From positions 1 to 64,000 of the IMG/VR virus record IMGVR_UViG_3300013105_000003: a DNA stretch of 64,000 nt; one strand, 5' to 3'. Position numbers and translations under genes: made by a program. This stretch comes from a virus (taxonomy: Duplodnaviria > Caudoviricetes). Positions 7,014 to 60,889 of this stretch are shown here, piece by piece. Every line of letters begins with the position of its first letter. Within the stretch, counting starts at the first letter, position 1. The notes under the pieces were generated by a model. It had not been told where the DNA came from. It was given only the letters and a program-made list of their open reading frames with translations, and did not search any database.

Positions 7014-7021
7014 ACGATAAT
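7014..7021 (+). promoter_or_regulatory. phage late-promoter motif ACGATAAT
   Basis: recurrent intergenic octamer, upstream of terminase genes. Confidence 0.75.
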
Positions 7022-7055
7022 GTGGTATACATATGTCCTAAGGTAAGGAACCACA

Positions 7056-7526
7056 TTGACTGACGACACACTAAATAAGGTAACAGAACTTACCTTTAAT
7101 ACTGGTAAGGAAGTCTCTGTAGGTCAAGAAAAACTTCTAGATTCAACAGGACTAACACCTGCTTTTCAGACAGCACGACAGGATTTATTTCAGTCATTAG
7201 TGTCAGAGAGACCAGACTACGATGTAACTCAGCTTGCTTACATGGAGCGTATATCATATCTACAGGCTCGCATTAAGCAGAAGGAAGCCACTGGTGGGTA
7301 CAGCTCTGAGCAGAATTACACAATGGCTAACAGAACATTGCTTGATACGTTGGCGGCACTCCGTAAGGCTGACTTAGAACGAGAAGACAGAACTAAGTTC
7401 CAGCGTGACTTTATGGAGACAGTAGCCAAGGCTGTCCAGTATGCTACCAAGGATCTTGATGAAGATTCTCAGGATAGAGTGAAGTTCCTCCTTAGCCGTA
7501 AGTTTGAGGAGTTGCTTGGTGGTTAA
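7056..7526 (+). CDS. putative terminase small subunit
   Basis: helical 156-aa ORF directly upstream of and overlapping TerL. Confidence 0.5.
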   Translation: MTDDTLNKVTELTFNTGKEVSVGQEKLLDSTGLTPAFQTARQDLFQSLVSERPDYDVTQLAYMERISYLQARIKQKEATGGYSSEQNYTMANRTLLDTLAALRKADLEREDRTKFQRDFMETVAKAVQYATKDLDEDSQDRVKFLLSRKFEELLGG

Positions 7527-9459
7527 TAACTTCTTTCTCGATGCCTTAAATAGCAATGACGACGATGATGATAGCAAAAGAGTCTCTTCTGAAGGAGAAG
7601 CTGAGCTATTTAAAATCTTCTCTGAGAAGCCTGCAACTCTTGAAGAGTTTCTCTCCGATGATAAGTACCTAGGGTCTACTCTGTCGGGTGCCAAGCTGTC
7701 CCCTATCCAGGAAGACTTTGTAAGACACTTCGTTCAAATTCTAAAACTTGAAACCTACAGCCTCATGGCAGAGGTGTGGGGGGAGGAGTGGAAGCCACTG
7801 CGGCGTGTCAACAACCTAGCCGTGGCCTGGGGTAAGGGGTCCGGTAAAGACTTCTGTGTGCAAATTGGGTTTGCTTATATCACTCACCAGCTTCTATGTC
7901 TAAAGTCTCCACAGTCTTACTACGGCCTACCAAATCACACCTATATTCACATGATGAACGTAGCTATTTCATCAACACAGGCATCAGAAGTATTCTTCAA
8001 GCCAATGAAAGACTTGTTCGTAGAGTCCCCTTGGTTTAAGGATAAGTTCGCCAATGGTGAACTACCTGCAGAGCGTATTGGTGTAATGCGTATGAAGAAT
8101 CGAATTGACCTAGTGTCAGGACACTCAGAAGCTAGCTCTCTTGAAGGAAAGAACCTTATTGCTGCAGTAGCTGACGAGATTGCAGGGTTTGCCACAGCAG
8201 CTGATGCTTCCTCCACAGGTCGTGCTCCTGCTAAGACAGCTGAGGGCATCATGAAGATGCTTAAGAGTAGTGCTCAGACTCGATTCGCGGGGCACTACAA
8301 GGTAGTACAAATCTCATTCTCCAGAAGATTTGGTGATGCTATTATGACAGCGTTGCGAGATGCCAAAGAGAACGAGAAAGAATATGGTGACGACTCTACC
8401 TACTATTCATGTGGACCTTACTCTACGTGGGAAGTAAATCCAAAGTTTCGTCATAACTTCGAGTTTATTGAAATCCCACAGTCTAAGCAACTTGTACCTA
8501 ATGATCCTGACATTCTTACAGACTACAGGAAAGATCCAGTATTTGCTAGAGGCTACTATGAGTGTAGACCAGAGAAGTCATCAAATCCTTACTTTAAGGA
8601 CAAGGAAGCAATTAAGAATGCTTTCTCTCGTAAGGTAGAGGAAGAGCCTTTACAGATTGAGTACTTCTACGGCATTGACCACCTAGAGGATGATAAGTAC
8701 CCCTCTTGGCAGGTTAGGTTTAGTTTACATAAACTTGTTCCCAATGAGAACTGCCTTTACGCCATACACGCTGATATGGCAAAGAATGGTGACGTAGCAG
8801 GTATAGCTATGTCACATGTTAAGGGATACGAGCAGATTGACACTACCACTTTTGATGGGTACTCCAACGAGGAACTTAGACCAATCGTCAAGGTAGACTT
8901 TGCTACTGCATTTACACACGATATGTCTGCTACTGACACACTAGGTAATTCTATTCCTAGAGAGATTCAGATGAGATGGTACCGTAAGCTAGTACTGTGG
9001 CTGACTGATAAGGGTTTTAATATAGTCTCAGTAACTATGGATGGATTTCAGTCCTTGGATTCTCTACAAACTCTAGAGGCTAAAGGGTATAATACTAATA
9101 GAGTAAGTACCGATCTAAATAATACAGTGTGGCAAACTCTCAGAGACGTGATGTATGACAGTAGGCTTGATGCTTACTACAACAAACATGTAATAGCTGA
9201 ATTTGAATCTTTGACACAGCTATCTACCGGAAAAGTAGACCATCCACCAGACTTCAGTAAGGACATTGCTGACGCTCTAGCTTGTTCTGTTGCAGGAGCT
9301 GTACCTCTAGGTGGGTCAGAGGATGACGGAGATGGTGTTAACTTCTTTACTGGTAGCAGTGATGCTGGCAATCCATTTGAAGGTGGACTGGATGAGAGTG
9401 GTTTTACTAACATAAGTATAGATCCAGATACTTCACTTTCCACAGGCTCATGGTGGTAA
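7519..9459 (+). CDS. terminase large subunit
   Basis: Walker A WGKGSGKD, Walker B AVADE, nuclease HADMAKNGD and VDHP..SKDIADA; GAGGAG before GTG 7519. Confidence 0.92.
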   Translation: MVNNFFLDALNSNDDDDDSKRVSSEGEAELFKIFSEKPATLEEFLSDDKYLGSTLSGAKLSPIQEDFVRHFVQILKLETYSLMAEVWGEEWKPLRRVNNLAVAWGKGSGKDFCVQIGFAYITHQLLCLKSPQSYYGLPNHTYIHMMNVAISSTQASEVFFKPMKDLFVESPWFKDKFANGELPAERIGVMRMKNRIDLVSGHSEASSLEGKNLIAAVADEIAGFATAADASSTGRAPAKTAEGIMKMLKSSAQTRFAGHYKVVQISFSRRFGDAIMTALRDAKENEKEYGDDSTYYSCGPYSTWEVNPKFRHNFEFIEIPQSKQLVPNDPDILTDYRKDPVFARGYYECRPEKSSNPYFKDKEAIKNAFSRKVEEEPLQIEYFYGIDHLEDDKYPSWQVRFSLHKLVPNENCLYAIHADMAKNGDVAGIAMSHVKGYEQIDTTTFDGYSNEELRPIVKVDFATAFTHDMSATDTLGNSIPREIQMRWYRKLVLWLTDKGFNIVSVTMDGFQSLDSLQTLEAKGYNTNRVSTDLNNTVWQTLRDVMYDSRLDAYYNKHVIAEFESLTQLSTGKVDHPPDFSKDIADALACSVAGAVPLGGSEDDGDGVNFFTGSSDAGNPFEGGLDESGFTNISIDPDTSLSTGSWW

Positions 9460-9469
9460 TAATACCACA

Positions 9470-9478
9470 GCCGATAAT
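9470..9478 (+). promoter_or_regulatory. late-promoter motif, exact sigma28 -10 consensus (GCCGATAAT)
   Basis: intergenic, upstream of portal. Confidence 0.75.
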
Positions 9479-9521
9479 ATGTACGTAGACTTTTCTAAAC
9501 TTAGAAGACTAGAGGTATGAC

Positions 9522-11138: not shown

Positions 11139-11139
11139 C

Positions 11140-12319: not shown

Positions 12320-12321
12320 GT

Positions 12322-12329
12322 ACGATAAT
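12322..12329 (+). promoter_or_regulatory. phage late-promoter motif ACGATAAT
   Basis: intergenic copy of the recurrent octamer. Confidence 0.7.
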
Positions 12330-12348
12330 CTATTAGGAGGTACGAGGC

Positions 12349-12735
12349 ATGGAGCTTAGAGCAATAGAAAAACTTGCAGAGAAGTTAGCTAGACTTGACA
12401 AAGATGATCTAGGTATGATAGCATTCTTATCAGATACCTATGACGACAACTTACTAGAATTATCAAAAGGGGAACTAGATAGGTCTCCTAAACACAACTG
12501 GGTTGAAGACGCTGGAGGACTACCAGGTCCAATAGAAGATTTAGCAGTTGAGTTGCATAAGAAAGGCATGAGCATTAGTCATGCAATAGCTACTGCTGTA
12601 AGCAAGGCAAAGGTTTATGCACTAACAGCTAATGGTGCCAAGAAAGCTAAGTGGGCAGCAGCAGTAGCACAGTGGGAAGCTATGAAGGCAAAGAATAAAG
12701 CACGTACCGTAGCAAGTAAGCTAAGTAATAAGTAA
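12349..12735 (+). CDS. hypothetical protein, candidate internal head protein
   Basis: AGGAGG SD; acidic N-terminus with LLELS, then basic helical body (NWVEDAGGLP). Confidence 0.7.
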   Translation: MELRAIEKLAEKLARLDKDDLGMIAFLSDTYDDNLLELSKGELDRSPKHNWVEDAGGLPGPIEDLAVELHKKGMSISHAIATAVSKAKVYALTANGAKKAKWAAAVAQWEAMKAKNKARTVASKLSNK

Positions 12736-12767: not shown

Positions 12768-12971
12768 ATGAGCACAGTCACAGACCCAACAAATATTCCA
12801 AATCTAGCCAGTACAGGTGATCTTGAGTCTCGTCTCACTTCTGAGTATGAGAAGTGGGTAAAGGCTAAACGTAGTGGAGACTTATCAAAACAGATGCGAG
12901 ATGCTCGGGAGAGGTTTAATAAACTTCTTGACGAAATACTTCTTCTAAGACTAGAAGAGACGATAATCTGA
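12768..12971 (+). CDS. hypothetical protein
   Basis: 67-aa ORF with GAAAGG SD. Confidence 0.6.
   Translation: MSTVTDPTNIPNLASTGDLESRLTSEYEKWVKAKRSGDLSKQMRDARERFNKLLDEILLLRLEETII
12960..12967 (+). promoter_or_regulatory. phage late-promoter motif ACGATAAT
   Basis: at the end of the upstream ORF, ahead of the 13004 ORF. Confidence 0.6.
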
Positions 12972-13003: not shown

Positions 13004-14473
13004 ATGGGATCATGGGCCTACGACGATAGTTTTGATGATGTTGTTGAGCTATCAGATGCTGGAGTTGCACTTCACTTGCTGAAGTCTGTCTTCTTTCTTA
13101 ACGGACCCAGTAAGAAACACTGGAATTCCGTAAAGCACCCTAGAGATGGGCATGGTCGCTGGGCACACACATTTGGTAACAATGAGAGTATAGGTAGGGG
13201 ATCTAGTACTAGAGTTTATGGTACTCCCCGTACTAGATCATTCCCTACCCATGATGGTATGCCAAACACAACTGCTGAAGTAGGTCCAGGTGACAGGGTT
13301 TACCAGACCTCTTCAGGTTCCCATGTGGTTGTTCGTCCAGACGGCTCAGGAACTTATGTAGGTAAAGACGGTAAACAAGTTGCTCTCACAGGTAAGGGAG
13401 TAGATAGTCACTTAGGTACTAAGGGATCTAAAGATGGAAAAGATGCTCCAAAGCTAGTAGACCACCAGCCAGGAATCCAAGTACACGCTAAGAATGATGC
13501 TGAGGCAGAGACTATCTTGCAGCAGCACGAGTCTATTGATAAGAAGTTTGCTGATAAGCACCCTAATCCTGACTCATACACTCCAAAACATGCAGGCTCC
13601 GAAAGCACAGCCTCAAATGTTCCTAGTAAGGACGGTTCTAACGATTTCTCCTCACTTGATCTAAAGCCAGGTGATGAACTTCGTCGTAACGCTAAGGACA
13701 ACAATCAGACAATGATTCTGCACCTTGACGGAAGTAGTACTATTTTCGATGCTAAGGCTGGTAAAGAAACTAACAGCAATGTGACAAAGACACAAGGTCT
13801 TCTTCTAGGTAATTCCGACGTTTCAGAGGCAATGGCTGGAAAGAAGTCATGGAGTTCTATAGATGCTAGGGGTATTTCAGCTTCTCAGAAGAGTATAGAC
13901 CAGCGTTGGCCTATCATACACAAAGAGCCAATGGCTAATACTACTTTTGACCACTCAACTCATGGTCCTATTAGTGCTAACTATGCTGATGCTAAGAATG
14001 TAGTAGCTAAAGAGCATTCTAACGGCATTGCAGTTCGCAATACACATACAGGAGCTACCTTCGTCCACAAGAAGGACGGTACAGTTTCTAAATTTTCTGG
14101 AAGCGTTAATGACTTCAACGCTCTACCAGATGCTAAGGCCAAGGACTCCATTGCGAAGGCAAATGATAAGACACATGAGCATAAGACTCTAGGTGGAACC
14201 ACACCAACTAATATTGGATCTGACCCAAGTCAGAAGAACTCCCTTCGTCAAAAGCAGCAGGACGCTGCAAAGGGTGTGAAGAGTGATACCTTTGGTGGAG
14301 TAGATTCAGCTGGTAATCTCAATCTTCCCACTAGTGACGGTAAGTCTGATACAATTGTGATTGAGAACGAACAAGAACTCAATATAATCATGAAGACTTT
14401 CGAGCAGTTGGGCATTAAGGAAATCAATGGTGTACCTCTTGCTGAGTACTTCAATCTTAAAGGAAAGAAGTAA
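13004..14473 (+). CDS. hypothetical virion-associated protein with HPRxxxGxW motif
   Basis: N-terminal VVELS then WNSVKHPRDGHGRW; lies in head cluster. Confidence 0.7.
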   Translation: MGSWAYDDSFDDVVELSDAGVALHLLKSVFFLNGPSKKHWNSVKHPRDGHGRWAHTFGNNESIGRGSSTRVYGTPRTRSFPTHDGMPNTTAEVGPGDRVYQTSSGSHVVVRPDGSGTYVGKDGKQVALTGKGVDSHLGTKGSKDGKDAPKLVDHQPGIQVHAKNDAEAETILQQHESIDKKFADKHPNPDSYTPKHAGSESTASNVPSKDGSNDFSSLDLKPGDELRRNAKDNNQTMILHLDGSSTIFDAKAGKETNSNVTKTQGLLLGNSDVSEAMAGKKSWSSIDARGISASQKSIDQRWPIIHKEPMANTTFDHSTHGPISANYADAKNVVAKEHSNGIAVRNTHTGATFVHKKDGTVSKFSGSVNDFNALPDAKAKDSIAKANDKTHEHKTLGGTTPTNIGSDPSQKNSLRQKQQDAAKGVKSDTFGGVDSAGNLNLPTSDGKSDTIVIENEQELNIIMKTFEQLGIKEINGVPLAEYFNLKGKK

Positions 14474-16095: not shown

Positions 16096-16103
16096 ACGAT
16101 AAT
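16096..16103 (+). promoter_or_regulatory. phage late-promoter motif ACGATAAT
   Basis: after terminator, upstream of protease. Confidence 0.75.
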
Positions 16104-16143
16104 AATAGTGTACGAATTTTAGTACTCTGAAGGGGTTTAGTAT

Positions 16144-17397
16144 ATGGGTGATTCCAATGTTGTTCTCTCGTCCAAAGGTGACGACGACAACGAGTATGTA
16201 GAGCTTGCCCGCACCCCTTCCGGCAAGGTGTATCGTAAGCAGATTCTTAAGATGAATGAGTCCTTTCTTCATCCAGCCAATAAGGCACAGAGAATTACTA
16301 TCGACCAGAACTTTGCAGAGCAGCTAGTAAATAACTTTAAAGCCGGTTACTGTGATACTGTCCAGTTTCCAAAAGTTAACGAAAAGAACCAGCACGTAGA
16401 AGACCCAGACTTCAACATGGGTGAGGTTATTGACCTTACTTATGACGACAAGGGAGTATGGGCTTACATTGATGTGCGGAAGAATGCTGATGACATTGGC
16501 AAGACCTATCTAGGTGCTAGTGCCATGATGAGTTTGGATTACGAAGACCACTCTACAGGTAATCACGTAGGTCCAACTCTATTACACGTAGCTGCTACTA
16601 ATAGACCTTATTTGACTAATCTTGCTCCTTACGAGTCAGTTTCTTTAAGTAACAGCCAAAACAACGATAATTTTATTGTAATGCTCTCAGAAGATGAGAA
16701 TACCTCCGGCTCAGAGTCGGACGAAGACGAAAGCAGGAGTTCAATGGACCGCCTAGAAGAACTACTAAAGGAGCTTTCCGACGTTTATGACATTGACGTT
16801 GAGGCTCTTCAGAAGGCTCAGAAGGAAGCTGCAGAAGCTAAGACTGATGAGGAAGCTGCAAAGGCTGACAAGAAGGTTGAAGAGGCTGAGGCTAAGGTAG
16901 AGGATACCAAGGAAAAGACTGAAGAGGCTAAGGCTGAGGTTGAAGAGAAGGTAGCAGAGCCAGTCGCTGCTAGTGCTGACTCAGACCTTGATGAGCTAAT
17001 TGCTAAGCTTTCTGATGTTCTAAAGTCTGCAGACCCTAACCTAGTATCTCTCTCTGATTCAGAGGTAAGTGTTGCTGACCTAGCCAATGGTGTCATTGAG
17101 CTATCTAACAACTACAAGACTATGAGTAACACAGTAGGCACCCTTAACCGTAAGAGTGCAGAGGCTGATGTTGACGAAGCAGTACGGGCAGGAAAGATTC
17201 TACCCGCACAGCGTGACGCATATGTTGAACTAAAGCTCTCAAACGAGTCCATGTATGAGTCCCTAATTCCAGAGACTGCAATTGTTTCACTCTCCAATGA
17301 GAAGGGTGTTGCAATTCATGATATGCCCAACAACGGAGCAACTGTAGATAGTGATGCTGCTGAAATTGCACGCATCGCCGCAAAGCTAAAAAAGTAA
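16144..17397 (+). CDS. Mu gpI-like prohead protease fused to scaffold
   Basis: GPTLLHVAATNRPYL motif, acidic coiled-coil, AVRAGKILPAQ; upstream of decoration/capsid genes. Confidence 0.85.
   Translation: MGDSNVVLSSKGDDDNEYVELARTPSGKVYRKQILKMNESFLHPANKAQRITIDQNFAEQLVNNFKAGYCDTVQFPKVNEKNQHVEDPDFNMGEVIDLTYDDKGVWAYIDVRKNADDIGKTYLGASAMMSLDYEDHSTGNHVGPTLLHVAATNRPYLTNLAPYESVSLSNSQNNDNFIVMLSEDENTSGSESDEDESRSSMDRLEELLKELSDVYDIDVEALQKAQKEAAEAKTDEEAAKADKKVEEAEAKVEDTKEKTEEAKAEVEEKVAEPVAASADSDLDELIAKLSDVLKSADPNLVSLSDSEVSVADLANGVIELSNNYKTMSNTVGTLNRKSAEADVDEAVRAGKILPAQRDAYVELKLSNESMYESLIPETAIVSLSNEKGVAIHDMPNNGATVDSDAAEIARIAAKLKK
16664..16671 (+). promoter_or_regulatory. internal late-promoter motif for nested scaffold
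   Basis: ACGATAAT in AT-rich patch 80 nt before in-frame AGGAG-ATG. Confidence 0.6.
16744..17397 (+). CDS. nested in-frame scaffolding protein (Mu gpZ-like)
   Basis: AGGAG SD before in-frame ATG 16744 (MDRLEELLKELS). Confidence 0.65.
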   Translation: MDRLEELLKELSDVYDIDVEALQKAQKEAAEAKTDEEAAKADKKVEEAEAKVEDTKEKTEEAKAEVEEKVAEPVAASADSDLDELIAKLSDVLKSADPNLVSLSDSEVSVADLANGVIELSNNYKTMSNTVGTLNRKSAEADVDEAVRAGKILPAQRDAYVELKLSNESMYESLIPETAIVSLSNEKGVAIHDMPNNGATVDSDAAEIARIAAKLKK

Positions 17398-18985: not shown

Positions 18986-18993
18986 ACGATAAT
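18986..18993 (+). promoter_or_regulatory. phage late-promoter motif ACGATAAT
   Basis: immediately after capsid terminator. Confidence 0.75.
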
Positions 18994-19022
18994 ATTAGTA
19001 AGTCTAACAACTAGGAGTAAAT

Positions 19023-19211: not shown

Positions 19212-19220
19212 AGCACATCT

Positions 19221-19266
19221 AAAGTATGCTTACCCATATTCACGATAATATGGGTAAGCATACTTT
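19221..19266 (+). repeat. 20-bp perfect inverted repeat with ACGATAAT (19242-19249) at its apex; terminator plus promoter
   Basis: AAAGTATGCTTACCCATATT-CACGAT-AATATGGGTAAGCATACTTT. Confidence 0.85.
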
Positions 19267-19290
19267 ATTTTACCTAGAAACGGAGTTACC

Positions 19291-19626
19291 GTGGGTTTTT
19301 ATTTCAGTAACAAGGTTGACACCAGCCTCCCATACTACAAGGTCACTGTCACTAGTGAGGCTGGCTTCCTAGCCTTTGGAGAGCCTTGGAAGCGTGGTTC
19401 ACAGATTTTCATTCAGGCAGATTCAGACAAGTATGAAGAGACCAAGGATAGAGAAGGCAACTCTTGGCTAGACAAAACTAGCACAGAGTATGAAGTTAAA
19501 CTTCTAGATCCCCAGAAGGACGCCAAGCTAAAGGAAACTCTAGTATTGGTAGATGACAGTTCTGATCCTGTAATCGAGAACAAGCCAACTAATAGTAGAG
19601 CCAAGAAGTCAGTTCCTAAGGAGTAA
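19291..19626 (+). CDS. hypothetical protein (head-tail region)
   Basis: GGAG SD, 111 aa. Confidence 0.65.
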   Translation: MGFYFSNKVDTSLPYYKVTVTSEAGFLAFGEPWKRGSQIFIQADSDKYEETKDREGNSWLDKTSTEYEVKLLDPQKDAKLKETLVLVDDSSDPVIENKPTNSRAKKSVPKE

Positions 19627-21489: not shown

Positions 21490-22542
21490 ATGGCTCTAAG
21501 AGTACACATGCAAGCTCCCCTTGGGCAGACCTCAGGATATCACAGAGATGGTCTGGGCCTAGTTCGGGCATTTAATAAGTCTGGTGCTTACGTCACTATC
21601 CAGCCCTCTGATGTAGTCACTCCAATTCCTGAGGATATCTCAAAGGTACTGACACACGAACCAGACTACCCTTTCGATCTATTTGTTAATCACCTTAACC
21701 CTCACACTCTCAAAATACCAGAAGACATAAAAGACGTTGCCTGGAAGAAGGTTGCTTGGACAATGTGGGAGTGGGATTCTTTTGGACCTAACACAGAACT
21801 AGTCAGAAAGAACCTAGAAGGTTACGACTTAGTTCTTGGATACGATGACACCTCAGTACAAGCTCTAAAGGCTACAGGCACTGATGTTCCAGTACGTAAG
21901 TTACAAGGTGGTTATGAGCCTGATGTATGGGCCGATGACGATGGAAAAATGCCAGAGAGAGATTGGTTTGCAGAAGAGTTTGTTTTTGTTATTGCAGGCG
22001 AGCTAACTCCTCGAAAGAATCCTTACGTTCTATGTAAGGCTCTTAACCAGCTATGGGAAGAGGGTTATAAGTTCAAGCTTATTATGAAGAATAAGTTTGA
22101 CTTCCAATTACCTGCTCGAATGGAAGAGGCTTACCCATTCCTTACCATTGAGAATGGTACTTGGCCTGTTCATAAAATGCGTGAGTTGTATGAGTCTGCT
22201 CATTGCTATGTAGCCCCCTCACAGGGGGAAGGAAAGAATCTTCCAGCTATCGAGTCAGGCACTACTGGTTGTGCTCTTATTCTCTCAGATGTTGCAGGTC
22301 ACCGTGAGTGGGGTCATCCAGAGTTCGCTACCTTTGTTGGTGGCACTTGGAATAACTATGACGCTGGGTGTGGCTGCCTTAATGTTGATGTTGTTGAACT
22401 CCGTGAAGCTTGTAGAGATTTGATGGATAACCGAAACAAGGCTAAGCAGATGGGAAGGCTTGCTCACGATATTCTTCCAGCAACCCTTTCTTGGGACAGT
22501 GTAGTTCGTAAACTGACCACAGAGTATTTGAGTAGGATTTGA
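21490..22542 (+). CDS. GT-B glycosyltransferase (GT4-like)
   Basis: SGY, TMWEW, RKNP, PSQGEGKNLPAIES (ExxxxxxxE motif). Confidence 0.88.
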   Translation: MALRVHMQAPLGQTSGYHRDGLGLVRAFNKSGAYVTIQPSDVVTPIPEDISKVLTHEPDYPFDLFVNHLNPHTLKIPEDIKDVAWKKVAWTMWEWDSFGPNTELVRKNLEGYDLVLGYDDTSVQALKATGTDVPVRKLQGGYEPDVWADDDGKMPERDWFAEEFVFVIAGELTPRKNPYVLCKALNQLWEEGYKFKLIMKNKFDFQLPARMEEAYPFLTIENGTWPVHKMRELYESAHCYVAPSQGEGKNLPAIESGTTGCALILSDVAGHREWGHPEFATFVGGTWNNYDAGCGCLNVDVVELREACRDLMDNRNKAKQMGRLAHDILPATLSWDSVVRKLTTEYLSRI

Positions 22543-22804: not shown

Positions 22805-22812
22805 ACGATAAT
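22805..22812 (+). promoter_or_regulatory. phage late-promoter motif ACGATAAT
   Basis: upstream of major tail gene. Confidence 0.75.
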
Positions 22813-22910
22813 ATTAGTGATAACGGCTTTCAGCGGAGGAACCGTGCTGGTCATAAGAGTGCCAGAGCCACCGCTAGAGGGTTAGCGGATAACAAGTAAG
22901 GATTAAAAAC

Positions 22911-23459
22911 ATGGCTGCTCCAATTATCGAGGGTTTCTCCCTCTCCCACGCCGCAATCCTCGACGGTGCCACAGGTGCCGAAGCTGCTGACATTTATGGT
23001 GTCCGACAGGCTTCCATCGAGGTTGACACAGACTCCTACGACAACACTGGTGACGACGCAGTACTTTCAACCTGGCAGTGGGTTAACTTCGCAACTGTCA
23101 CAGTCCAGTCAGGCTACATTCCATTCGACCTAGTTGCTCTTCTAGCTAACACCACAGTTACCTCTTCAGGTTCTGGTGCTTCAATGAGTGCATCAATGGC
23201 ACTCTGGGGCGAGAAGGCACTAAGTGTCGCCCCCCGTCCAATGCTTGTCCGCATTCCCTCTAGAGGTAGTGGTGGAGAAAGCCGTGTCCTAGAAATTGTA
23301 CTTTACAAGGTACAGTTCGCACCTATGTCATTCGACGGTCCTCAGTACCGTGACGGTCTAGTTGTTTCCTACTCAGGTAAGGCTGTTATGTCTTCAACTG
23401 ACGAAAAGGGACAGCCACTTTCAGAGCGTTCAATCGGTCGAATTGTCACCCATATCTGA
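22911..23459 (+). CDS. major tail protein
   Basis: precedes frameshifted chaperones; highly biased codons; 182 aa. Confidence 0.8.
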   Translation: MAAPIIEGFSLSHAAILDGATGAEAADIYGVRQASIEVDTDSYDNTGDDAVLSTWQWVNFATVTVQSGYIPFDLVALLANTTVTSSGSGASMSASMALWGEKALSVAPRPMLVRIPSRGSGGESRVLEIVLYKVQFAPMSFDGPQYRDGLVVSYSGKAVMSSTDEKGQPLSERSIGRIVTHI

Positions 23460-24192: not shown

Positions 24193-24677
24193 AGCAAGAC
24201 AAGACAGGCAGTTTTACTGCAGTCATTGACTTGTTAGCTAGTGAATATGGTTGGTCACAAAAAAGAATATTGAACACAACTATTGCTAATCTCTCTAAGA
24301 TGGTAGATAACATTAAAGAGAGGCAAAGGGTGAGGCTAAAGCAAACTATTGTAATCCAAGAGTGGGCAGCCAAGCACATAGCAGGAGTTGTAGCTGGTTC
24401 CGTAGAGGATAAAGGCGGAAAGTTCCAGAAGGCCGTATCCAAACAGAGATTTCCTTGGAAAGAGTTTGGATTCCCAGAAATGGTCAATGAAGACGATGAC
24501 TATGATGACGAAGACGACACTGAGTACTTTACACCCAAGCCTCCACCACCATATCGAGAAGAAGGTGAAGATCCATCCTTTGACTACATTCTAGGTGACG
24601 GAAACATGAAGGGCGCTATGCGAGACAACAAGGGTGTTGGAGATATGAGGTTGGCTGTAAGCAAACTAGCACGATAA
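24117..24677 (+). CDS. tail assembly chaperone frameshift extension (GT)
   Basis: open -1 frame; LASEYGWS typical of the T part. Confidence 0.8.
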   Translation, partial: GKTTEDHVRGSEQDGPDREHLRHQVKQDKTGSFTAVIDLLASEYGWSQKRILNTTIANLSKMVDNIKERQRVRLKQTIVIQEWAAKHIAGVVAGSVEDKGGKFQKAVSKQRFPWKEFGFPEMVNEDDDYDDEDDTEYFTPKPPPPYREEGEDPSFDYILGDGNMKGAMRDNKGVGDMRLAVSKLAR

Positions 24678-24678
24678 T
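24671..24678 (+). promoter_or_regulatory. phage late-promoter motif ACGATAAT
   Basis: upstream of tape measure. Confidence 0.7.
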
Positions 24679-24739
24679 ATAAATGAATATATTTAATCCG
24701 CAGAAGCGGTGGTAATTCTTTAAATTAGGGAGTAATAGT

Positions 24740-36287: not shown

Positions 36288-36295
36288 ACGATAAT
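36288..36295 (+). promoter_or_regulatory. phage late-promoter motif ACGATAAT
   Basis: upstream of tail-tip gene. Confidence 0.75.
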
Positions 36296-36341
36296 ATTAA
36301 CGACCACTACATCGGCTTGACCGGGAAGGTTTGTTTTACCT

Positions 36342-42465: not shown

Positions 42466-42530
42466 CACGACACTCCCAAAACAACGATAATATATGAGTA
42501 AATCATTTGTCTTTTGGGAGTGTTGTCGTG
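42466..42530 (+). promoter_or_regulatory. RBS-occluding hairpin with ACGATAAT (42484-42491) in its loop
   Basis: ACACTCCCAAAA/TTTTGGGAGTGT 12-bp stem covers the GGGAG SD; extension covers GTG 42528. Confidence 0.7.
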
Positions 42531-43121
42531 GCTAATTTGAGAAAACTTTGGGGTCGTGTCAGTCCTCACAAGCGTCTAATGAAGCTATTCGACTGGTTAG
42601 GCCCAAGAGGCACTTTACTACTTCTTTGCGGATTTATCTGGATTCAGACTGGTGTTGGTACATTACAAGGATACAGCGGTGCTCCAGATGATGCACCTCA
42701 CCTTCTAATACCAGCAACTATCAGGGGGTCTTTGTGGATCATATCTGGTATAGTAGCAATTGTTCTATGCCCTACTCGTAGTATTAAATATCACAGAGTA
42801 GCTATCACTGTCCTACCATTAATGCCACTTGTGAGATTAATCTCATACTTATTTTCTTGGATGTGTTCATGGAGTTTATTCAACTTTGCATTTCCTTCAT
42901 TTCCATTGGACGGGTCAGCTAGGGCTGAGTATCAGAGTACCTTCTGGCAAGCTGACTTACTTCTTGTAGTTGCTCTTATGCTTGCACCAGCTACATGGAA
43001 AATGATTAGTAACTACCTATCACAAGAGCAGTTGGGGGATTACGACAGGACTGTTAAAGTAGTGTCAGAGGAGAGTGAAGAAGCCTCTTCAGGGGATGAG
43101 AGAAGTGGTGAGGTCCGTTGA
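42528..43121 (+). CDS. multi-pass membrane protein (possible lysis accessory/holin)
   Basis: about four hydrophobic segments; GGGAG before GTG 42528. Confidence 0.7.
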   Translation: MANLRKLWGRVSPHKRLMKLFDWLGPRGTLLLLCGFIWIQTGVGTLQGYSGAPDDAPHLLIPATIRGSLWIISGIVAIVLCPTRSIKYHRVAITVLPLMPLVRLISYLFSWMCSWSLFNFAFPSFPLDGSARAEYQSTFWQADLLLVVALMLAPATWKMISNYLSQEQLGDYDRTVKVVSEESEEASSGDERSGEVR

Positions 43122-43636
43122 TTACTTCAACTATAGTAAGTGTGGCAATACTTACTTCAACTTCCGCACCAAATGTAGAAAGCTTAGCACAAGGAGATAA
43201 CAAGTGGACTCTTCTTGGCATTGTTATTACTTCCCTAGTAGCTCCTGCAGTTATTCTTCTTATTAATAGCAGAGCACTTAGACCACCTAGCAAGCCCGAC
43301 GAGGAACCTAATATAGTTTCTACTGACAGAGGAACTTCTTTTTCTATAGAAGGAATGTCAACCAACATGGTAGAGGTACTTCTCTCCATGTGGAAGAAAC
43401 TAGATGAGATGGAAGACAATCAGGAATCTTGGTCTGCAGAACGGCAAGAGTTTATTCGTATCAATGAGGAACTTCGCAGACACAATAGAGCACTCGCTGA
43501 GGGTTTTGATGAGGTTATTGACTGGATTGATCGTGGTGCTAAGCCACCACCACCTTCTGTGGCACAGCACGTAAGGGATCTAGTACAAAGAGCTATAGAA
43601 AATGGCACCTTTGACGGGTTAAACTCAGACCATTAA
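43118..43636 (+). CDS. single-TM membrane protein with coiled coil (possible lysis accessory)
   Basis: TM WTLLGIVITSLVAPAVILLI, coiled coil, WIDRGAKPPPP. Confidence 0.7.
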   Translation: MITSTIVSVAILTSTSAPNVESLAQGDNKWTLLGIVITSLVAPAVILLINSRALRPPSKPDEEPNIVSTDRGTSFSIEGMSTNMVEVLLSMWKKLDEMEDNQESWSAERQEFIRINEELRRHNRALAEGFDEVIDWIDRGAKPPPPSVAQHVRDLVQRAIENGTFDGLNSDH

Positions 43637-43701
43637 TATGCTATACTATATAGGTAGCCACTTAACCTGAGTTTGCAGCAAGTCCTCAACTCTGGTATAC
43701 T
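43611..43701 (+). promoter_or_regulatory. tandem sigmaA-type promoters starting the replication block
   Basis: TTGACG-N17-TAATAT (43611-43639) and TTGCAG-N17-TATACT with TGG extension (43673-43701). Confidence 0.65.
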
Positions 43702-43766
43702 GAGAGAAGATAGCACTGAATCATTCACTTGACCATGAGAGTCTCGATAGAGACAGTATAGACCAG

Positions 43767-43877
43767 ATGTATAAAGAAGCACGACTAGATGCTCTTAATG
43801 ATCCTGGTTATATGCTTGATATGATTGATGCTATGCAGAGACAGAGAGCATATAAGCGAGTCGTAGAAGAGGACTAA
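43767..43877 (+). CDS. small hypothetical protein
   Basis: MYKEARLDALNDPGYMLDMIDAMQRQRAYKRVVEED*, stop overlaps helicase ATG; start may be further upstream. Confidence 0.4.
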   Translation: MYKEARLDALNDPGYMLDMIDAMQRQRAYKRVVEED

Positions 43878-45478: not shown

Positions 45479-45978
45479 GTATTCTATTGCGAACTGTTCA
45501 TGGATCACATTTATACAACTTAAACCATGATAACTCAGACACAGATTACTATGAGGTTTACTCTGGAAAGGGTAGAGCCAAACAGACTATAGTAGGAGAT
45601 ATTGATACACTACGTATAAGCTATGACTCTTTCATGTTCCAGTGTCGTAAAGGTGTGCCTCAGGCACTAGAGGCTTTGTACTCACCTGTTAAAGAGATAG
45701 ATGAAATACCTTTTATCACAGATTCATTTAATCCTATAAGTACAGAAGTTTATAAGACTTATGTACGGACTATTAGGAATTTCTGGAAAGAGGGTAGCCT
45801 GAAGAGAAAACGTCATGCTGTCAGGCTTTGTATCAATCTATCATGTATAATGAGGTATGGAAGGTTTAACCCCTCTCTAACTCAGATAGAGAAAATATTC
45901 GTAGTAGCCTATGGAGACGTGGACGAAGAGGAATGTCCAGCTCTTAACATGTTAGGATTCCCACTTTATATATGGTAG
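45475..45978 (+). CDS. Pol-beta superfamily nucleotidyltransferase (RlaP/YcgL-like)
   Basis: GSHLYNL..NSDTDY motif and KGVPQALEAL. Confidence 0.75.
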   Translation: MSILLRTVHGSHLYNLNHDNSDTDYYEVYSGKGRAKQTIVGDIDTLRISYDSFMFQCRKGVPQALEALYSPVKEIDEIPFITDSFNPISTEVYKTYVRTIRNFWKEGSLKRKRHAVRLCINLSCIMRYGRFNPSLTQIEKIFVVAYGDVDEEECPALNMLGFPLYIW

Positions 45979-46748
45979 ATAAAAAGAAGCCAAAAGTATC
46001 TATTGCTCCTAACGAAGATGAGAGGTGGAGTTTAGCCAAGGCAGGTAATACTGAGGCGCAAAACTCACTTGTTATAGAGCATGAGCCACTAGTGTATCAA
46101 GTTGTAGGAACAATGATCTTCAAGTTCCCTGACCACATTGAGGCTGATGACTTACACTCTTACGGCATGTTAGGGCTGTGGAAGGCTGTGAAGACCTATG
46201 ACCCTTCCAAGGCATCCTTCCGCACCCATGCAGCTTTTAGGATTAGGAATGCGATCTATGATGAGTTGCGCATCCAGGACTGGGCACCTGTAACAGTTCG
46301 TCAGAAGGCCAAGGAACTAAATAAGCTAAGAGAAGAATTCGTTAAAACTAACCGAAGACCTCCTACAGACGAAGAGCTAGGGGAGCTAGTAGGTAAGGAC
46401 GAAGACTGGGTACGCACTTTCAAACAACAGCTTGAAGCAACAGAGCACCGCCCGATGGAAGAACTAGAGAACACGTATGGTAGTATAGAAGCAGTACCAG
46501 ATTTCTCTACCTCTAAGAATGTATCAGAGTCCGGTGCTATGGCTTTAATCCTGCAGCAGTCCTTTGTGAGTTGGTTAGATGAACTACCCAACTCTCTCAA
46601 GTGTTTGTGGATAGTGATATACTACTGTGGTAAGTCTAAAAAAGAAGCAATGGTTATACTAGGCTTACGAACATACGAAATATCAGAACAGAATAAAAGA
46701 CTCATCAATGAGTTCAGGAAATTTTACGAGCATTTACAGTTAAACTAA
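45972..46748 (+). CDS. RNA polymerase sigma factor, FliA/WhiG (sigma28) family
   Basis: DDLHSYGMLGLWKAVKTYDP, FRTHAAFRIRNAIYDELRIQDWAP..VR, RPPTDEEL. Confidence 0.9.
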   Translation: MVDKKKPKVSIAPNEDERWSLAKAGNTEAQNSLVIEHEPLVYQVVGTMIFKFPDHIEADDLHSYGMLGLWKAVKTYDPSKASFRTHAAFRIRNAIYDELRIQDWAPVTVRQKAKELNKLREEFVKTNRRPPTDEELGELVGKDEDWVRTFKQQLEATEHRPMEELENTYGSIEAVPDFSTSKNVSESGAMALILQQSFVSWLDELPNSLKCLWIVIYYCGKSKKEAMVILGLRTYEISEQNKRLINEFRKFYEHLQLN

Positions 46749-54143: not shown

Positions 54144-54632
54144 ATGGATAACATAGACCTACTTCTTTCAGCCTTGTCAGATATCCTCATCCAGTCCACA
54201 GAAATCCGCAACTCTTATCTTGAAGATGATTCAGTGGTGGGTGAGATTGAAGATGTTGGTGACTTGTACCTACGATTCAAGCAGTTCCGTAACGGCCTAG
54301 ACCGTATAGAGAACTTGTTGAATCAGTCTATTAGAATCAAGGCCAAAGCCGATAATATGTATGCAGAATCATGCTATGATATAGAAGACGCAGAAGTTCA
54401 ACTAGTAGATAAAAAGACACAAGATTACCAGTCAAGTAGAGACAGAAGTATTGAAATAAACGCAGCGACTATCACCGAACGAAGAGCATCACGAAGACTA
54501 TCAAAACTACTAACTGAAGCGCGAGCAACCGTCCAGGTAATTAGCAATCATCACAAGGGCCTAGAGTCTAGTAAGAGAGACCTGGAGACGAGAATGCGAG
54601 CACTCAGCTTCATATCACCATACGAGAAGTAA
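54144..54632 (+). CDS. helical protein, possibly UvsY-like recombination mediator
   Basis: 162-aa coiled-coil upstream of gp32-like SSB; function inferred from size and context only. Confidence 0.4.
   Translation: MDNIDLLLSALSDILIQSTEIRNSYLEDDSVVGEIEDVGDLYLRFKQFRNGLDRIENLLNQSIRIKAKADNMYAESCYDIEDAEVQLVDKKTQDYQSSRDRSIEINAATITERRASRRLSKLLTEARATVQVISNHHKGLESSKRDLETRMRALSFISPYEK
54348..54361 (+). promoter_or_regulatory. possible internal late-promoter motif upstream of SSB
   Basis: GCCGATAATATGTA, identical 14-mer to the portal promoter at 9470. Confidence 0.4.
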
Positions 54633-55709: not shown

Positions 55710-55720
55710 CCCAACAACGT

Positions 55721-55756
55721 AAGTGGGGATCAGGATTAAGGTCTTGGTCCCCACTT
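55721..55756 (+). terminator. hairpin, probable terminator
   Basis: AAGTGGGGATCAGGA/TCTTGGTCCCCACTT. Confidence 0.7.
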
Positions 55757-55772
55757 GCAGTTACCTTATATT

Positions 55773-56776: not shown

Positions 56777-57065
56777 AGGAGATTTCGTAGCTCCACCACC
56801 TCCAGGAAAGCCAGGACCAAAGCCTGGGCAGGCGGGTAGAAAGTCTAAGATTTTCACAGAGGATAAGCTGACACTACTGACAAGCAATCCTGGAAAGTGG
56901 ATTGTATTGAAGCAACCAGCCACACAAAACCAGTACTCAAATGCGATACAATGGACTAAGAGGAACAACGGATTCAAGGTAGTCGGAAGACACAGCCCAG
57001 ATAATCCACCGGAAGCTAAAATTACACTATTTGCAATATACAACCCAGAGGAATTAAATGGTTAA
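56766..57065 (+). CDS. hypothetical protein
   Basis: Pro-rich N-terminus, NPGKW. Confidence 0.6.
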   Translation: MTSEGDFVAPPPPGKPGPKPGQAGRKSKIFTEDKLTLLTSNPGKWIVLKQPATQNQYSNAIQWTKRNNGFKVVGRHSPDNPPEAKITLFAIYNPEELNG

Positions 57066-58260: not shown

Positions 58261-58448
58261 GAATGAGTGATGAAAACACACCAGAGATTCCAGCCACTTT
58301 TCGAGATGACTTAAGTAGAATTATCAACCACCACAGTATAGATGCTAAGTTAAATGTCCCAGACTTTATTCTTGCCTCTTTTATCGAGAATGTTCTAGTT
58401 GACTTTAATTTTGCAAACTCTGCAACTAGGAGATGGGAAGGTAAGTGA
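58257..58448 (+). CDS. hypothetical protein
   Basis: INHHSID..NVPDFILA pattern. Confidence 0.65.
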   Translation: MRMSDENTPEIPATFRDDLSRIINHHSIDAKLNVPDFILASFIENVLVDFNFANSATRRWEGK

Positions 58449-59497
58449 AAACTGTAGACAAGGCTACTCTAGAAGAGTCTGTAAACTCTCTTACCCCACA
58501 ATTTATTACAGAGCCAGGTAAACTTAAAGTACAGATTCTAGAGGATTGGTTAGATGAAGAAGATAGTATTGAACCTCTTAGTGTCATCCATGTGTATCTA
58601 TACACTGAGAGCGGTAGATTCCAAACCAATTACCGGACTTTTAAGTCTCTTCTCGGTTCACTCTACATTCAAGAGCAGCTAATGAAGTTAGTGGCTCCTA
58701 GTGTTCTAGAGAGCCTTGTCAACAGTGTCCTTGCTGATATCCCAGCACACAAGGGTCCATCTTTCGTCATCGACTCTCAGGACATTGCTTCTGATGTAGT
58801 ACGTAATGCAGGAATACTACCCTTCTATCTGTCAGAGTCCATCGAGTACCTAACAAGTACTTTCTGTTACGCTGTAGATGGTAGTGGACAAACTGATAAG
58901 ATTGAGTACTTGCCTCTAGTTCACGAGGATAACTCAACAAAGGTGTCGGTGATTCATAAGGATCTATCTATAACTATCTTTGATGACTTGTGGTATGGGG
59001 GTGTTGCTCTTACTCAGTCTAGCTCTGGTAGACTGGTTCCTACTGTCACTTACTTTATGGCTCGTGATGATGACAACTACATCATTACACTTCCAGGAGT
59101 CAATCTCCGGTACTCGGTACCTAAGAATGGTGCTACAGTTGAAGATGGACTAGCGTGGATTGAGGATGCCGTAGGAATGGCTGCTAGCATTCTTCCTAGC
59201 GAGATGGAGAAGATCAAGCACTTGGCGAGTAAGGACATAGAAAGAGACCTCGCAACTATCATTAAGGATATTCTAAAAACAGTACAGCTTCCACAAGGGC
59301 AGCGAGCAAGGGTAGTAGCTGATGTTATTAATGATTTTGAAGACTCTTCTGCCTATGGGCTGATGCTTAACGTCGGTGCAGCACAGTTGACAGATGATTT
59401 GTCCTTTGCTATACTAGACAAGACACAACAAGCAGCAGGCAAGGTTCCAAGTGTTCTAGGCCACCGATGCTCCCACTGCCACCAACTAACGGAATGA
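58445..59497 (+). CDS. hypothetical protein, possibly DUF932-like, C-terminal CxxC
   Basis: GGVALTQSSSG..V..MARD segment; HRCSHCH end. Confidence 0.55.
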   Translation: MKTVDKATLEESVNSLTPQFITEPGKLKVQILEDWLDEEDSIEPLSVIHVYLYTESGRFQTNYRTFKSLLGSLYIQEQLMKLVAPSVLESLVNSVLADIPAHKGPSFVIDSQDIASDVVRNAGILPFYLSESIEYLTSTFCYAVDGSGQTDKIEYLPLVHEDNSTKVSVIHKDLSITIFDDLWYGGVALTQSSSGRLVPTVTYFMARDDDNYIITLPGVNLRYSVPKNGATVEDGLAWIEDAVGMAASILPSEMEKIKHLASKDIERDLATIIKDILKTVQLPQGQRARVVADVINDFEDSSAYGLMLNVGAAQLTDDLSFAILDKTQQAAGKVPSVLGHRCSHCHQLTE

Positions 59498-59498
59498 T

Positions 59499-59933
59499 AT
59501 GACTAGTCTTAAAGGAATTACCTCAGGTAATCTAATCAGTGCTCTGCATATATTTACTGAGGCTGACAGTGAGTTACACTTCTATCTTGATTGGAGAGAA
59601 GAGGAGACTCCTTACCCACTTGTTGTCTCAGTAGACTGTAGTGATGACTACATATGGGGTTGTGCAGATTTTGAGGATTTGACTAATGCTGATATGCCAT
59701 TGTTACGAAGGTGCTACCTAGATGCCAAAGAACTTGTAGGAGACCTGAGTTTGACTACTTACGGATTCCCACTTGGTTCTTTGTTCTGTGCAAGAAAGAG
59801 AAAACTTTATCCGACTAACCTTCTCAATCATTTCGGATTTAGTTATTGGCCTGAAGAGATTAGACAAGGGTGGATTAAATTGCTTGAAGAGGCACCTAAC
59901 TTTGAACTAGTGAGAGAAGTAGGCAGTGTCTGA
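59499..59933 (+). CDS. hypothetical protein
   Basis: CSDDYIWGCADFE, LFCARKR. Confidence 0.65.
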   Translation: MTSLKGITSGNLISALHIFTEADSELHFYLDWREEETPYPLVVSVDCSDDYIWGCADFEDLTNADMPLLRRCYLDAKELVGDLSLTTYGFPLGSLFCARKRKLYPTNLLNHFGFSYWPEEIRQGWIKLLEEAPNFELVREVGSV

Positions 59934-60153
59934 CAATTATAACCCAGATGAGATTCTTGAGGATCCAAAATCTCACCCTCTTCACAAGATGTATGCAGCG
60001 ATAAACATTGCTATACGAGACAAGGGAGAGCACTGGTATAAGTGTGCTAACTGTGGTGACCCATACCCAGAAACCGAAGAGTGGCAAAATAGTACCGTTT
60101 GTAGTGACAGCTGTGGAAATTCTTATATCAGATATTTAAACGAAGGATTTTAA
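59926..60153 (+). CDS. small Zn-finger-like protein
   Basis: CANCG..VCSDSC. Confidence 0.6.
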   Translation: MSDNYNPDEILEDPKSHPLHKMYAAINIAIRDKGEHWYKCANCGDPYPETEEWQNSTVCSDSCGNSYIRYLNEGF

Positions 60154-60154
60154 A

Positions 60155-60427
60155 ATGCCAGTAGAAGTTAGATACTATGATTACGATGGAGACGGTACTT
60201 GGCTAAGGCTAGTCAACCTAGAGCCAGATCCGCGAGATGAGCCAGAAGATGAGAGTGTAGTTGACGTTTGTGTAAAAAATGACCTCGATGAGAGTTCTAT
60301 AGCAGTGAGGCTAACTGCGGACGATGTGAAGAGGTTAATTACAGATTTGCAATCTACTCTTCCTAAGACAGTAGCCGGGAGTATTGACACTCCTATTGTT
60401 ACTACTATAAATCCTAGTTGGTCGTAA
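60155..60427 (+). CDS. hypothetical protein
   Basis: AAGGA SD, packed ORF. Confidence 0.6.
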   Translation: MPVEVRYYDYDGDGTWLRLVNLEPDPRDEPEDESVVDVCVKNDLDESSIAVRLTADDVKRLITDLQSTLPKTVAGSIDTPIVTTINPSWS

Positions 60428-60428
60428 T

Positions 60429-60803
60429 ATGGCTGATAAGTACAGTCCCCAAAAAGGTGATAGGGTTAAGTTGACAATTGAGGCTACTGTAGTAGAGTCA
60501 GATGACTACAAGGCAAAAAAGGGTTGCCTTAGTTATGTTCTCTTAGAGGCTGACACTCCTGAGTACCTAGACCCTGTGTATCTAGAGCTAGTAGGAGTAC
60601 TCGAAAAATCTTGTACTCTAGAGAAGATAGAGAAGCCTCTAGAAGAAGGTTGGGTAGTGGTTAAGTCTTTATCAAGTCAACAAAAGAATGAGACTGCTGT
60701 CTATCACAAAGACGGGTATTTGTACCTAGATAGTGGCTGTACCATATTCTGGAATAAGCTGGCTGGTGTTGAAGTAATTACTAGACTAGAGTCAGCTAAG
60801 TAA
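60429..60803 (+). CDS. hypothetical protein
   Basis: packed ORF. Confidence 0.6.
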   Translation: MADKYSPQKGDRVKLTIEATVVESDDYKAKKGCLSYVLLEADTPEYLDPVYLELVGVLEKSCTLEKIEKPLEEGWVVVKSLSSQQKNETAVYHKDGYLYLDSGCTIFWNKLAGVEVITRLESAK

Positions 60804-60839
60804 GATGTTTATGTAAAACTCTTGCAATTCCAACAATCT

Positions 60840-60880
60840 AATGTCAAGGTCTCGTCATTTCGATGAGACCTTACATTTTT
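60840..60880 (+). terminator. intrinsic terminator
   Basis: AAGGTCTCGTC/GATGAGACCTT stem followed by ACATTTTT. Confidence 0.75.
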
Positions 60881-60881
60881 G

Positions 60882-60889
60882 ACGATAAT
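60882..60889 (+). promoter_or_regulatory. phage promoter motif ACGATAAT
   Basis: right after terminator, upstream of RNR. Confidence 0.7.

Follow-up and report, generated by a model that had tools for sequence, protein, structure and literature searches.

The first 64,000 nucleotides (64 kb; hereafter the window) of the viral record IMGVR_UViG_3300013105_000003, a Caudoviricetes phage genome of 125,231 bp, carry a short box, ACGATAAT, repeated on one strand ahead of virion, lysis, reductase and tRNA genes, together with a gene for a sigma factor of the sigma-28 (FliA/WhiG) family. We consider it likely that the boxes are promoters read by this phage sigma. They would represent the -10 regions (C-13 G-12 A-11 T-10 A-9 A-8 T-7 A-6 T-5) of about 22 middle and late promoters, with transcription starting at a conserved purine 7 nt after T-7, so that a conserved T/purine pair would form -1/+1, as is typical of start sites, and with host core RNA polymerase carrying the phage's own sigma as the reader. 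The sigma would have retained recognition of the CGATA core while losing the arginine that reads the GC of the extended -10 and the sigma4.2 residues that read the -35 element TAAA, a loss by which the promoters would need no -35. A cascade is proposed in which a host sigma would act at the extended -10 promoter of the replication operon, the phage sigma made from that operon acting in turn on the virion, lysis, reductase and tRNA genes. We infer promoter activity, start point, timing and the identity of the reading sigma from the sequence, whereas the statistics, placement, orientation and conservation of the motif were observed directly, as were the family affinity of the sigma and its substitutions.

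Twelve exact copies of ACGATAAT were found in the window (positions 7014, 12322, 12960, 16096, 16664, 18986, 19242, 22805, 24671, 36288, 42484 and 60882), all on the + strand, compared with 0.69 expected and a largest count of 3 among shuffles. An earlier note made from the sequence had listed these copies along with GCCGATAAT at 9470 and 54348 and ACGATACT at 2416, and all of its coordinates and strands proved exact. In an unbiased count, CGATAATA and ACGATAAT were the most over-represented 8-mers of the genome. Alignment of all genome copies gave a full motif of aACGATAATAT-N2-T-R, with a T at offset 12 from the C in 15 of 21 sites, a purine at offset 13 in 20 of 21, and no conserved columns upstream of the box. 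A position weight matrix (PWM) scan of the whole genome yielded 22 sites at or above 13 bits; the highest-scoring remaining site (12.0 bits) lies inside a gene. Twenty-one of these sites were on the + strand and one (123777) on the - strand, and all 22 shared the orientation of the downstream gene. Site placement was determined with a crude set of open reading frames (ORFs), by which intergenic sequence made up only 7% of the genome. Most PWM sites were observed 22-105 nt before a start codon and three (16665, 54350, 86587) were clearly intragenic, in agreement with the placement at gene boundaries described before, and terminators do precede some of the sites as had been claimed, with terminator-like hairpins directly preceding 18986 and 60882. 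Sites 19242 and 42484 fall inside hairpins.

The CGATAA core occupied positions -13 to -8 in 21 of the 22 sites (the exception, 2417, has CGATAC), and position -14 was A in 18 of 21. The dinucleotide GC at -15/-14 was observed in two of the 22 sites, GCCGATAAT being restricted to 9470 and 54348. We likewise found no conserved -35 element, as the earlier note had stated for the places it checked: TAAA at the sigma-28 spacing (14-17 nt) was present in 3 of the 22 sites against a background of 2.6%. A looser enrichment of TAA at -37 to -24 (11 of the 22 sites) was rejected as a sigma-28 -35 element and is best explained by the stop codons of upstream genes. Rfam matched nothing in the genome beyond tRNAs, and the motif is therefore not part of a known RNA family.

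The sigma gene was verified at 45972-46748 (+) and encodes a FliA/WhiG-like group 3 protein of 258 amino acids (Pfam Sigma70_r2, 61.8 bits). The NCBIfam model TIGR02479 (FliA_WhiG) matched it over its full length with 120.9 bits (sigma residues 34-249 against model positions 2-220 of 224), while SigBFG scored about 70 bits lower (49.8). The protein has the group 3 architecture of sigma2, sigma3 and sigma4 with no region 1.1. Its best matches among solved structures were Streptomyces venezuelae WhiG (6PFJ, 73.7 bits) followed by Pseudomonas aeruginosa and Escherichia coli FliA, and an AlphaFold (AF2) model with three helical domains (mean pLDDT 79.9, about 90 in sigma4) returned SigD, sigma-28 and WhiG as top Foldseek matches. 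A second sigma was rejected, as this gene holds the only sigma region 2 match of the genome. A phage RNA polymerase was also rejected as the reader: there was no match to a T7-type polymerase (the control was also silent) and no unexplained large ORF, every ORF above 500 amino acids being explained either through a family match or through its position.

In the open complex of P. aeruginosa sigma-28 the promoter reads (-15)GCCGATAA(-8) with A-11 flipped out, R97 reads G-15/G-14, and S224 and Q228 read the -35 TAAA (PMC12784957). The offset between the structure's chain and the numbering of that paper was verified on four residues (D66, Y76, I79, R82). At the place of R97, the arginine that reads the extended -10 GC (inferred equivalent of R91 in E. 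coli), the phage sigma has Val107; the residue stands at the start of region 3.0, where the phage sequence is DWAPVTVRQ, compared with DWxPRSVRQ in cellular homologues. His86 takes the place of the tyrosine that stacks on A-11 (Y76), and Phe89 stands at the wedge position I79. In the sigma4.2 recognition helix, S224, R225 and Q228 of P. aeruginosa are replaced by Tyr235, Glu236 and Glu239 (SESRVSQ to RTYEISE), which bears out the divergence of region 4 noted earlier. Cellular homologues in the same alignment retain TYA...DWxPRSVRQ...ESRVSQ. Across the phage clade the R97 position is V, I, K or Y, and no Pfam region 4 match was obtained, though one was found in the cellular homologues. The contacts lost from the sigma are exactly those for the elements absent from the phage boxes.

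These observations bear on whether the host's own sigma-28 (FliA/WhiG) could read the boxes, with the phage sigma redundant or acting on host genes. The CGATAA core is that of the sigma-28 -10 and would suit such a reader, but GC at -15/-14 and TAAA are as rare as given above, whereas initial recognition by sigma-28 has been described as requiring the -35 contacts, and promoters that have lost both GC bases as severely defective (PMC12784957). The phage sigma is moreover altered in a matching way, and sigma and motif change together across lineages (see below), so that we find reading by a host sigma-28 scarcely credible. Cross-activation of host WhiG targets by the phage sigma, which had been raised as an option, is also unlikely because reading of the extended -10 and of the -35 both appear lost and because T at -7 is invariant in the phage boxes.

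Metagenomic relatives were recovered with the sigma, at identities from 81% to 38%, and with the capsid protein, at identities from 86% to 38%. Among them, the close relatives have kept ACGATAATAT at the orthologous places (L001 1220; L003 787; L005 2454, 3023, 5371 and 5644; L006 175, 731, 3065, 3323 and 6961) while the flanking DNA is divergent. In distant lineages the positions of the sites are kept and the tail of the motif is changed. The motif is CCGATACTAT in L015 and L016 and CGATACTTCGG in L008, where it extends to CGATACTTCGGrTG with 7 of 7 copies on the + strand. In Microbacterium phage Magritte, the nearest named phage (capsid 34.7% and polymerase 27.7% identical, gene order the same), it is GYCGATATCCCTG, i.e. 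G(C/T)CGATATCCCTG, with all ten exact copies of CGATATCCCTG on the + strand and 0 in the control. Among the variants seen at orthologous sites (CGATAATAT, CGATACTAT, CGATACTTCGG, CGATATCCCTG) the sole part constant across all lineages is CGATA, the sigma-28 -10 core. Magritte has sites both upstream of the scaffold gene and within it. Others follow the capsid gene, precede the major tail protein gene, follow the tail genes, or lie in the tRNA region and close to the right end, a layout parallel to that observed here. As Magritte is the nearest named phage and the lysin is similar to endolysins of Microbacterium and Curtobacterium phages, the host is probably a member of Actinomycetota.

Magritte gp47, annotated as "DNA binding protein" (OR553905.1 47155-47895; L019 4156-4896), is syntenic with the phage sigma and is itself a FliA/WhiG-like sigma, though diverged (53 bits with TIGR02479; hhalign probability 95%). 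It retains an arginine at the R97 position, and the Magritte sites, G(C/T)CGATAT, retain G at -15. Sigmas with Val or Ile at this position go with A at -14, and C is found at -14 where the sigma has Lys (L003, L015/16). This covariation of residue and promoter supports direct reading of the boxes by the sigma. The FliA/WhiG affinity agrees with the earlier description of a captured sigma, but the very diverged syntenic homologue in Magritte indicates that any such capture was not recent. Magritte also encodes gp60 (L019 10645-11346), an additional and weakly ECF-sigma-like protein without a counterpart in this phage.

Other searches for relatives returned little. The DNA of the replication module had no match in the phage collection, a single-protein search of viral contigs found no relative, and a profile search gave one weak partial match (L014), which lacks the motif. 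Human-faecal "Bacteriophage sp." fragments matched sigma region 2 only and were set aside; they show no CGATA-type enrichment, fall outside the clade and are uninformative either way. In L009 (capsid 38% identical, GC 0.60) no enriched CGATA motif was found in 21 kb.

A second class of promoters was observed elsewhere in the genome. Promoters of the form TTGACA-N17/18-TAnnnT, often with a TGn extension, occur at 59-101 kb (+) and 111-119 kb (-), while at 1-59 kb the TTGACA-type matches were intragenic only (by the crude ORF calls) except for 211 and 641 beside the tRNA cluster. A consensus scan placed a candidate host primary-sigma promoter (TTTGCA-N18-TATACT with a TGG extended -10) at 43672-43701 (+), preceding an operon for an SNF2 helicase, a 167-amino-acid protein, the sigma and DnaB, and a second candidate of host type before the same operon at 43611-43639 (+). 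The TGGTAtACT box before the sigma operon is kept in relative L001, and L002 has a TGCTATACT box. Two promoter classes in separate regions, with a host-type box before the sigma operon, suggest a cascade from host sigma to phage sigma. We also observed, in the gap before the SNF2 helicase gene, a frame conserved at the protein level (...LDRDSIDQMYKEARLDALNDPGYMLDMIDAM...; window 43735-43876, L001 ~2500-2650, L002 ~960-1105), for which no conserved start codon is obvious and which probably represents a small gene not yet annotated.

Several points weigh against assignment of the boxes to the phage sigma. The sigma's TIGR02479 score does not reach the curated cut-off of that model (189.6 bits), the link between sigma and motif is correlative, and the covariation covers four or five lineages, the sigmas of L006 and L008 not having been recovered. 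The host is pointed to by phage relatives only. The regulon is middle/late and not purely late, as ribonucleotide reductase and tRNAs are not typical late genes. Finally, the motif also fits the extended -10 of actinobacterial primary sigmas, GnTAnnnT (as G-A-TAATAT), and the boxes could instead be strong, -35-independent promoters of the host primary sigma (SigA/sigma-70), composed of a TAATAT hexamer and an extended -10 G, with the phage sigma acting otherwise. Both CGATAATAT and CGATACTAT fit GnTAnnnT, the other promoter class of the genome also has extended -10 boxes (TGnTAnnnT), and many actinobacterial promoters have no -35 element. Recognition by a primary sigma, however, gives no role to the C and A that precede the G, the former invariant and the latter nearly so, and the relatives conserve CGATA and not TAnnnT, with CGATACTTCGG and CGATATCCCTG giving TACTTC and TATCCC, respectively, without the final T. 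The two promoter classes also occupy different regions of the genome, and the substitutions in the sigma match elements that the promoters lack. Primary-sigma promoters are therefore an unlikely explanation in our view, and recognition by the phage sigma remains the one we favour. The proposal of -10-only promoters matched to the FliA/WhiG sigma was upheld by family affinity, lost contacts, CGATA conservation and the complementary promoter classes, and is weakened by the score below the cut-off. The description "late sigma" suits the virion and lysis genes served but is too narrow for a regulon that includes reductase and tRNAs.

The site within the protease/scaffold gene (window 16664) was found in five of five lineages (the window, L005, L006, L008 and Magritte), the internal scaffold sites in relatives including L005 3023, L006 731 and L017 18767. 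In four of the five lineages, namely the window, L005, L006 and Magritte, an in-frame ATG without a Shine-Dalgarno sequence was observed 16-19 nt after the C of the box. The codons bearing the internal box differ by lineage, Asn-Asp-Asn (NDN) versus Val-Asp-Ile-Pro-Glu (VDIPE), with each phage spelling its own motif variant. A box kept at the DNA level while the amino acids change is hard to explain unless the DNA element is under selection, and a start codon without a Shine-Dalgarno sequence after the internal site in four lineages calls for an mRNA 5' end there. These features suggest the internal site as a candidate source of a leaderless transcript for a nested scaffold protein; a start at the ATG at 16681 would give an acidic C-terminal protein of 238 amino acids.

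The internal site also bears on whether the boxes might be something other than promoters, either asymmetric binding sites for a phage regulator, comparable to the cluster A mycobacteriophage stoperators, or a signal at the RNA level, for instance one for processing. Such a role would fit the orientation and intergenic placement as well as the two sites inside hairpins, and transcription-directed asymmetric intergenic repeats, often unexplained, are known in actinophages, e.g. Microbacterium clusters EC and EI (PMC7302621). It would leave unaccounted for the start codon without a Shine-Dalgarno sequence after the internal site in four lineages, the -10-like character of the box (AT-rich, A at -11, T at -7 and a T/purine pair at start spacing), and the identity of its core with the sigma-28 -10 core in a genome that encodes a sigma of that family. 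The variable distance to start codons, 22-105 nt, argues further against a translational signal, and we give these roles little weight compared with promoters for the phage sigma.

The CGATA core was observed in the loop of strong hairpins at window 19220-19275 and 42466-42530 and at L005 5620-5680, L006 3300-3350 and L015 2650-2700. Comparison of window 19242 with L005 5644 and L006 3323 showed that the stems vary in a compensatory way while the box is invariant. The hairpin-borne boxes may combine a terminator and a promoter packed together, or the structure may present the -10 element. A bolder version, to which we attach very little credence, is that sigma4, with its two acidic recognition-helix residues, does not read DNA and the sigma is held in place, instead of by a -35 contact, by a sliding clamp loaded on DNA, as in the case of T4 gp55, or alternatively that the hairpins (19242, 42484 and orthologues) act as cruciforms presenting a single-stranded -10. 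If clamp tethering were true, replication-coupled late transcription would have evolved independently in actinophages from a sigma-28 scaffold. The genome encodes a DnaN-like sliding clamp at 117821-118921 (- strand; L024), on the opposite arm, and a clamp-loader-like AAA+ protein (DNA_pol3_delta2) at window 5963-7009, directly upstream of site 7014, the putative first late promoter.

The remaining sites extend across the virion module (2.4-42.5 kb), in which PHROG matches identified a holin-like gene, terminase, portal, protease/scaffold and a tail structural protein, and in which the major capsid protein has the Phage_cap_E fold. All window sites described here are on the + strand. The first, the variant ACGATACTAT at 2416-2425 (PWM 14.4 bits), lies ahead of the holin-like gene; the CGATACTAT variant seen there is the norm in relatives L015/L016. 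Site ACGATAATGT at 7014-7023 is ahead of a small gene and the gene for the large terminase subunit, and CCGATAATAT at 9471-9480 lies 50 nt before the portal gene. Two copies of ACGATAATCT follow, at 12322-12331 (26 nt before gene 12349-12735) and at 12960-12969 (43 nt before gene 13004-14473, encoding 489 amino acids). Site ACGATAATAA at 16096-16105 is 47 nt before the protease/scaffold gene (16144-17397) and has orthologues at L005 2454, L006 175, L008 8464 and Magritte 18361, while the internal site ACGATAATTT discussed above occupies 16664-16673 in that gene.

Downstream of the capsid gene the sites were all ACGATAATAT up to the end of the virion module. The copy at 18986-18995 stands directly after the terminator hairpin 3' of the major capsid gene and is kept in L005 (5371) and L006 (3065), and that at 19242-19251 lies within a 19-bp hairpin, in its loop and 3' arm, and 48 nt before gene 19291-19626. 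The copy at 22805-22814 lies ahead of gene 22911-23459, which is major-tail-like by position, and has orthologues at L006 6961 and at Magritte 29541, where the site stands ahead of the annotated major tail protein. Further copies were found at 24671-24680, 68 nt before a gene of 2962 amino acids that is taken as the tape measure by size and position, at 36288-36297, 53 nt before a tail protein gene of 1951 amino acids, and at 42484-42493, inside a long hairpin 22 nt before gene 42507-43121, the last with orthologues at L001 1220, L003 787 and Magritte 43605. Beyond the virion module, ACGATAATAT recurs at 60882-60891, after a terminator hairpin and 48 nt before the ribonucleotide reductase gene. 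The genes behind the sites thus comprise holin-like, terminase, portal, protease/scaffold, head-tail, major-tail-position, tape measure and tail protein genes and the lysin operon, in addition to ribonucleotide reductase and two tRNA genes. A second internal site, CCGATAATAT at 54349-54358, lies within gene 54144-54632 and is kept in L002 at 11397; its conservation may reflect the coding sequence only, and its function is uncertain. Near the right end, back-to-back boxes were observed at 123777 (-) and 123816 (+) (genome 123400-123830; L013 8170-8600). The - strand box is directed at a stretch of about 300 nt that has GC-rich pairing and no convincing ORF and that may be a non-coding RNA, with no Rfam match there; a further weak CGATAAT was seen at 123681 (-).

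The genome has a GC content of 0.448, the two ends of the assembly overlap, and the record carries the classification of direct terminal repeats with 100% completeness. Genes run on the + strand up to ~105 kb and then on the - strand up to ~123.7 kb, with a replication module at 43.9-59 kb (SNF2 helicase, sigma, DnaB, DNA polymerase I and RecA). Three further observations concern other genes. An RNA ligase (RNA_lig_T4_1) and a polynucleotide kinase-phosphatase adjoin at window 3471-5515, next to a phage tRNA set, and resemble the T4-type pair for tRNA repair. ARAGORN reported a tRNA labelled tRNA-Pyl, whose anticodon CTA is of the amber suppressor type, at genome 115789-115873 (- strand; L012 11789-11873), adjoining tRNA-Lys, tRNA-Asn and tRNA-Gln; TAG is the stop of 17 of 120 long ORFs, and recoding of the genome is not obvious. 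A group 1 glycosyltransferase gene (window 21490-22542) separates the head-tail genes from the major tail gene and is kept across the whole phage group (L006 5552-6613, L008 19505-20545, L009 13314-14453, L017 28082-29212), which may point to glycosylation of virion proteins.

If the boxes are read by the phage sigma, a sigma-28-derived branch would be added to the short list of phage sigma/promoter systems (T4 gp55, SPO1 gp28/gp34 and phiEco32 gp36). The lineages would form a natural specificity series in which Arg, Lys and Val/Ile are matched by G(C/T), C and A at promoter -15/-14 and in which the tails diverge too (AATAT, ACTAT, ACTTCGG, ATCCCTG), making testable both sigma-28-type reading of the -10 and how a -35 can be dispensed with. 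The same regulon layout is present in cultured Magritte, so a host-phage pair for bench tests of the idea already exists. The boxes would also allow transcription units of this phage group to be annotated by rule and would yield compact orthogonal sigma/promoter pairs of possible use in Actinomycetota, and they suggest how some of the asymmetric intergenic repeats of actinophages that lack an explanation might be accounted for.

In the literature, which we covered incompletely, no paper on a phage-encoded WhiG/FliA-type sigma together with its promoters was found, and the main text of a survey of phage sigmas mentions neither FliA nor WhiG (PMC9429907). Phages of Microbacterium clusters EC and EI encode sigmas and have 5-12 repeats, all in one direction, in short gaps between genes, 21-30 bp ahead of the start codons (PMC7302621). 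Their repeat is a different motif of 18 bp, TAGaCTATaGGTgTaAgC, and that study draws no link between motif and sigma.

The best matches in both sequence and structure were to sigma-28 (FliA of E. coli and P. aeruginosa, SigD of Bacillus subtilis, WhiG of Streptomyces), a three-domain group 3 sigma whose promoter, TAAA-N15-GCCGATAA, has a core (C-13 G-12 A-11 T-10 A-9 A-8) identical to that of the phage box. The Magritte box, G(C/T)CGATAT, is close to GCCGATAA. The promoters of this phage have neither GC at -15/-14 nor TAAA and have an additional invariant T-7 and A-6 T-5. The phage sigma would serve genes for virion and lysis, not for flagella or sporulation. Sigma-28 proteins are controlled by anti-sigmas (FlgM, RsiG); none was identified in the phage, where no search was aimed at one. 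Judged by its sequence, the phage sigma belongs to the sigma-28 family by descent and fails several of the features defining membership. The T4 late sigma gp55 acts with host core polymerase on -10-only late promoters (TATAAATA), is truncated with no sigma4, and depends on gp33 and the DNA-loaded sliding clamp gp45. The phage sigma described here is, in contrast, full-length, and although the phage has its own DnaN-like clamp and clamp-loader-like ATPase, nothing ties these to transcription.

With phiEco32 gp36 and the related system of phage 7-11, whose single-element promoters are tAATGTAtA with the core AATGTA centred at -11.5 (PMC4331800; PMC12276001), there are both differences and a close parallel in design. 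The gp36 protein is a distant sigma homologue with a compact C-terminal domain that needs the co-factor gp79, whereas the sigma here is clearly of sigma-28 type, has a well-predicted sigma4 fold and an unrelated motif, and no co-factor was identified; the hosts are Enterobacteria for phiEco32 and probably Actinomycetota here. As in such single-element systems, we found one sigma, no RNA polymerase of the phage's own, and a -10 element without a -35 ahead of middle/late genes. In phiEco32, and as proposed here, a phage sigma on the host core uses one element of 9-12 nt near -10 as the sole evident consensus, with early genes on host sigma promoters and two spatially separated promoter classes (PMC4331800; PMC12276001).

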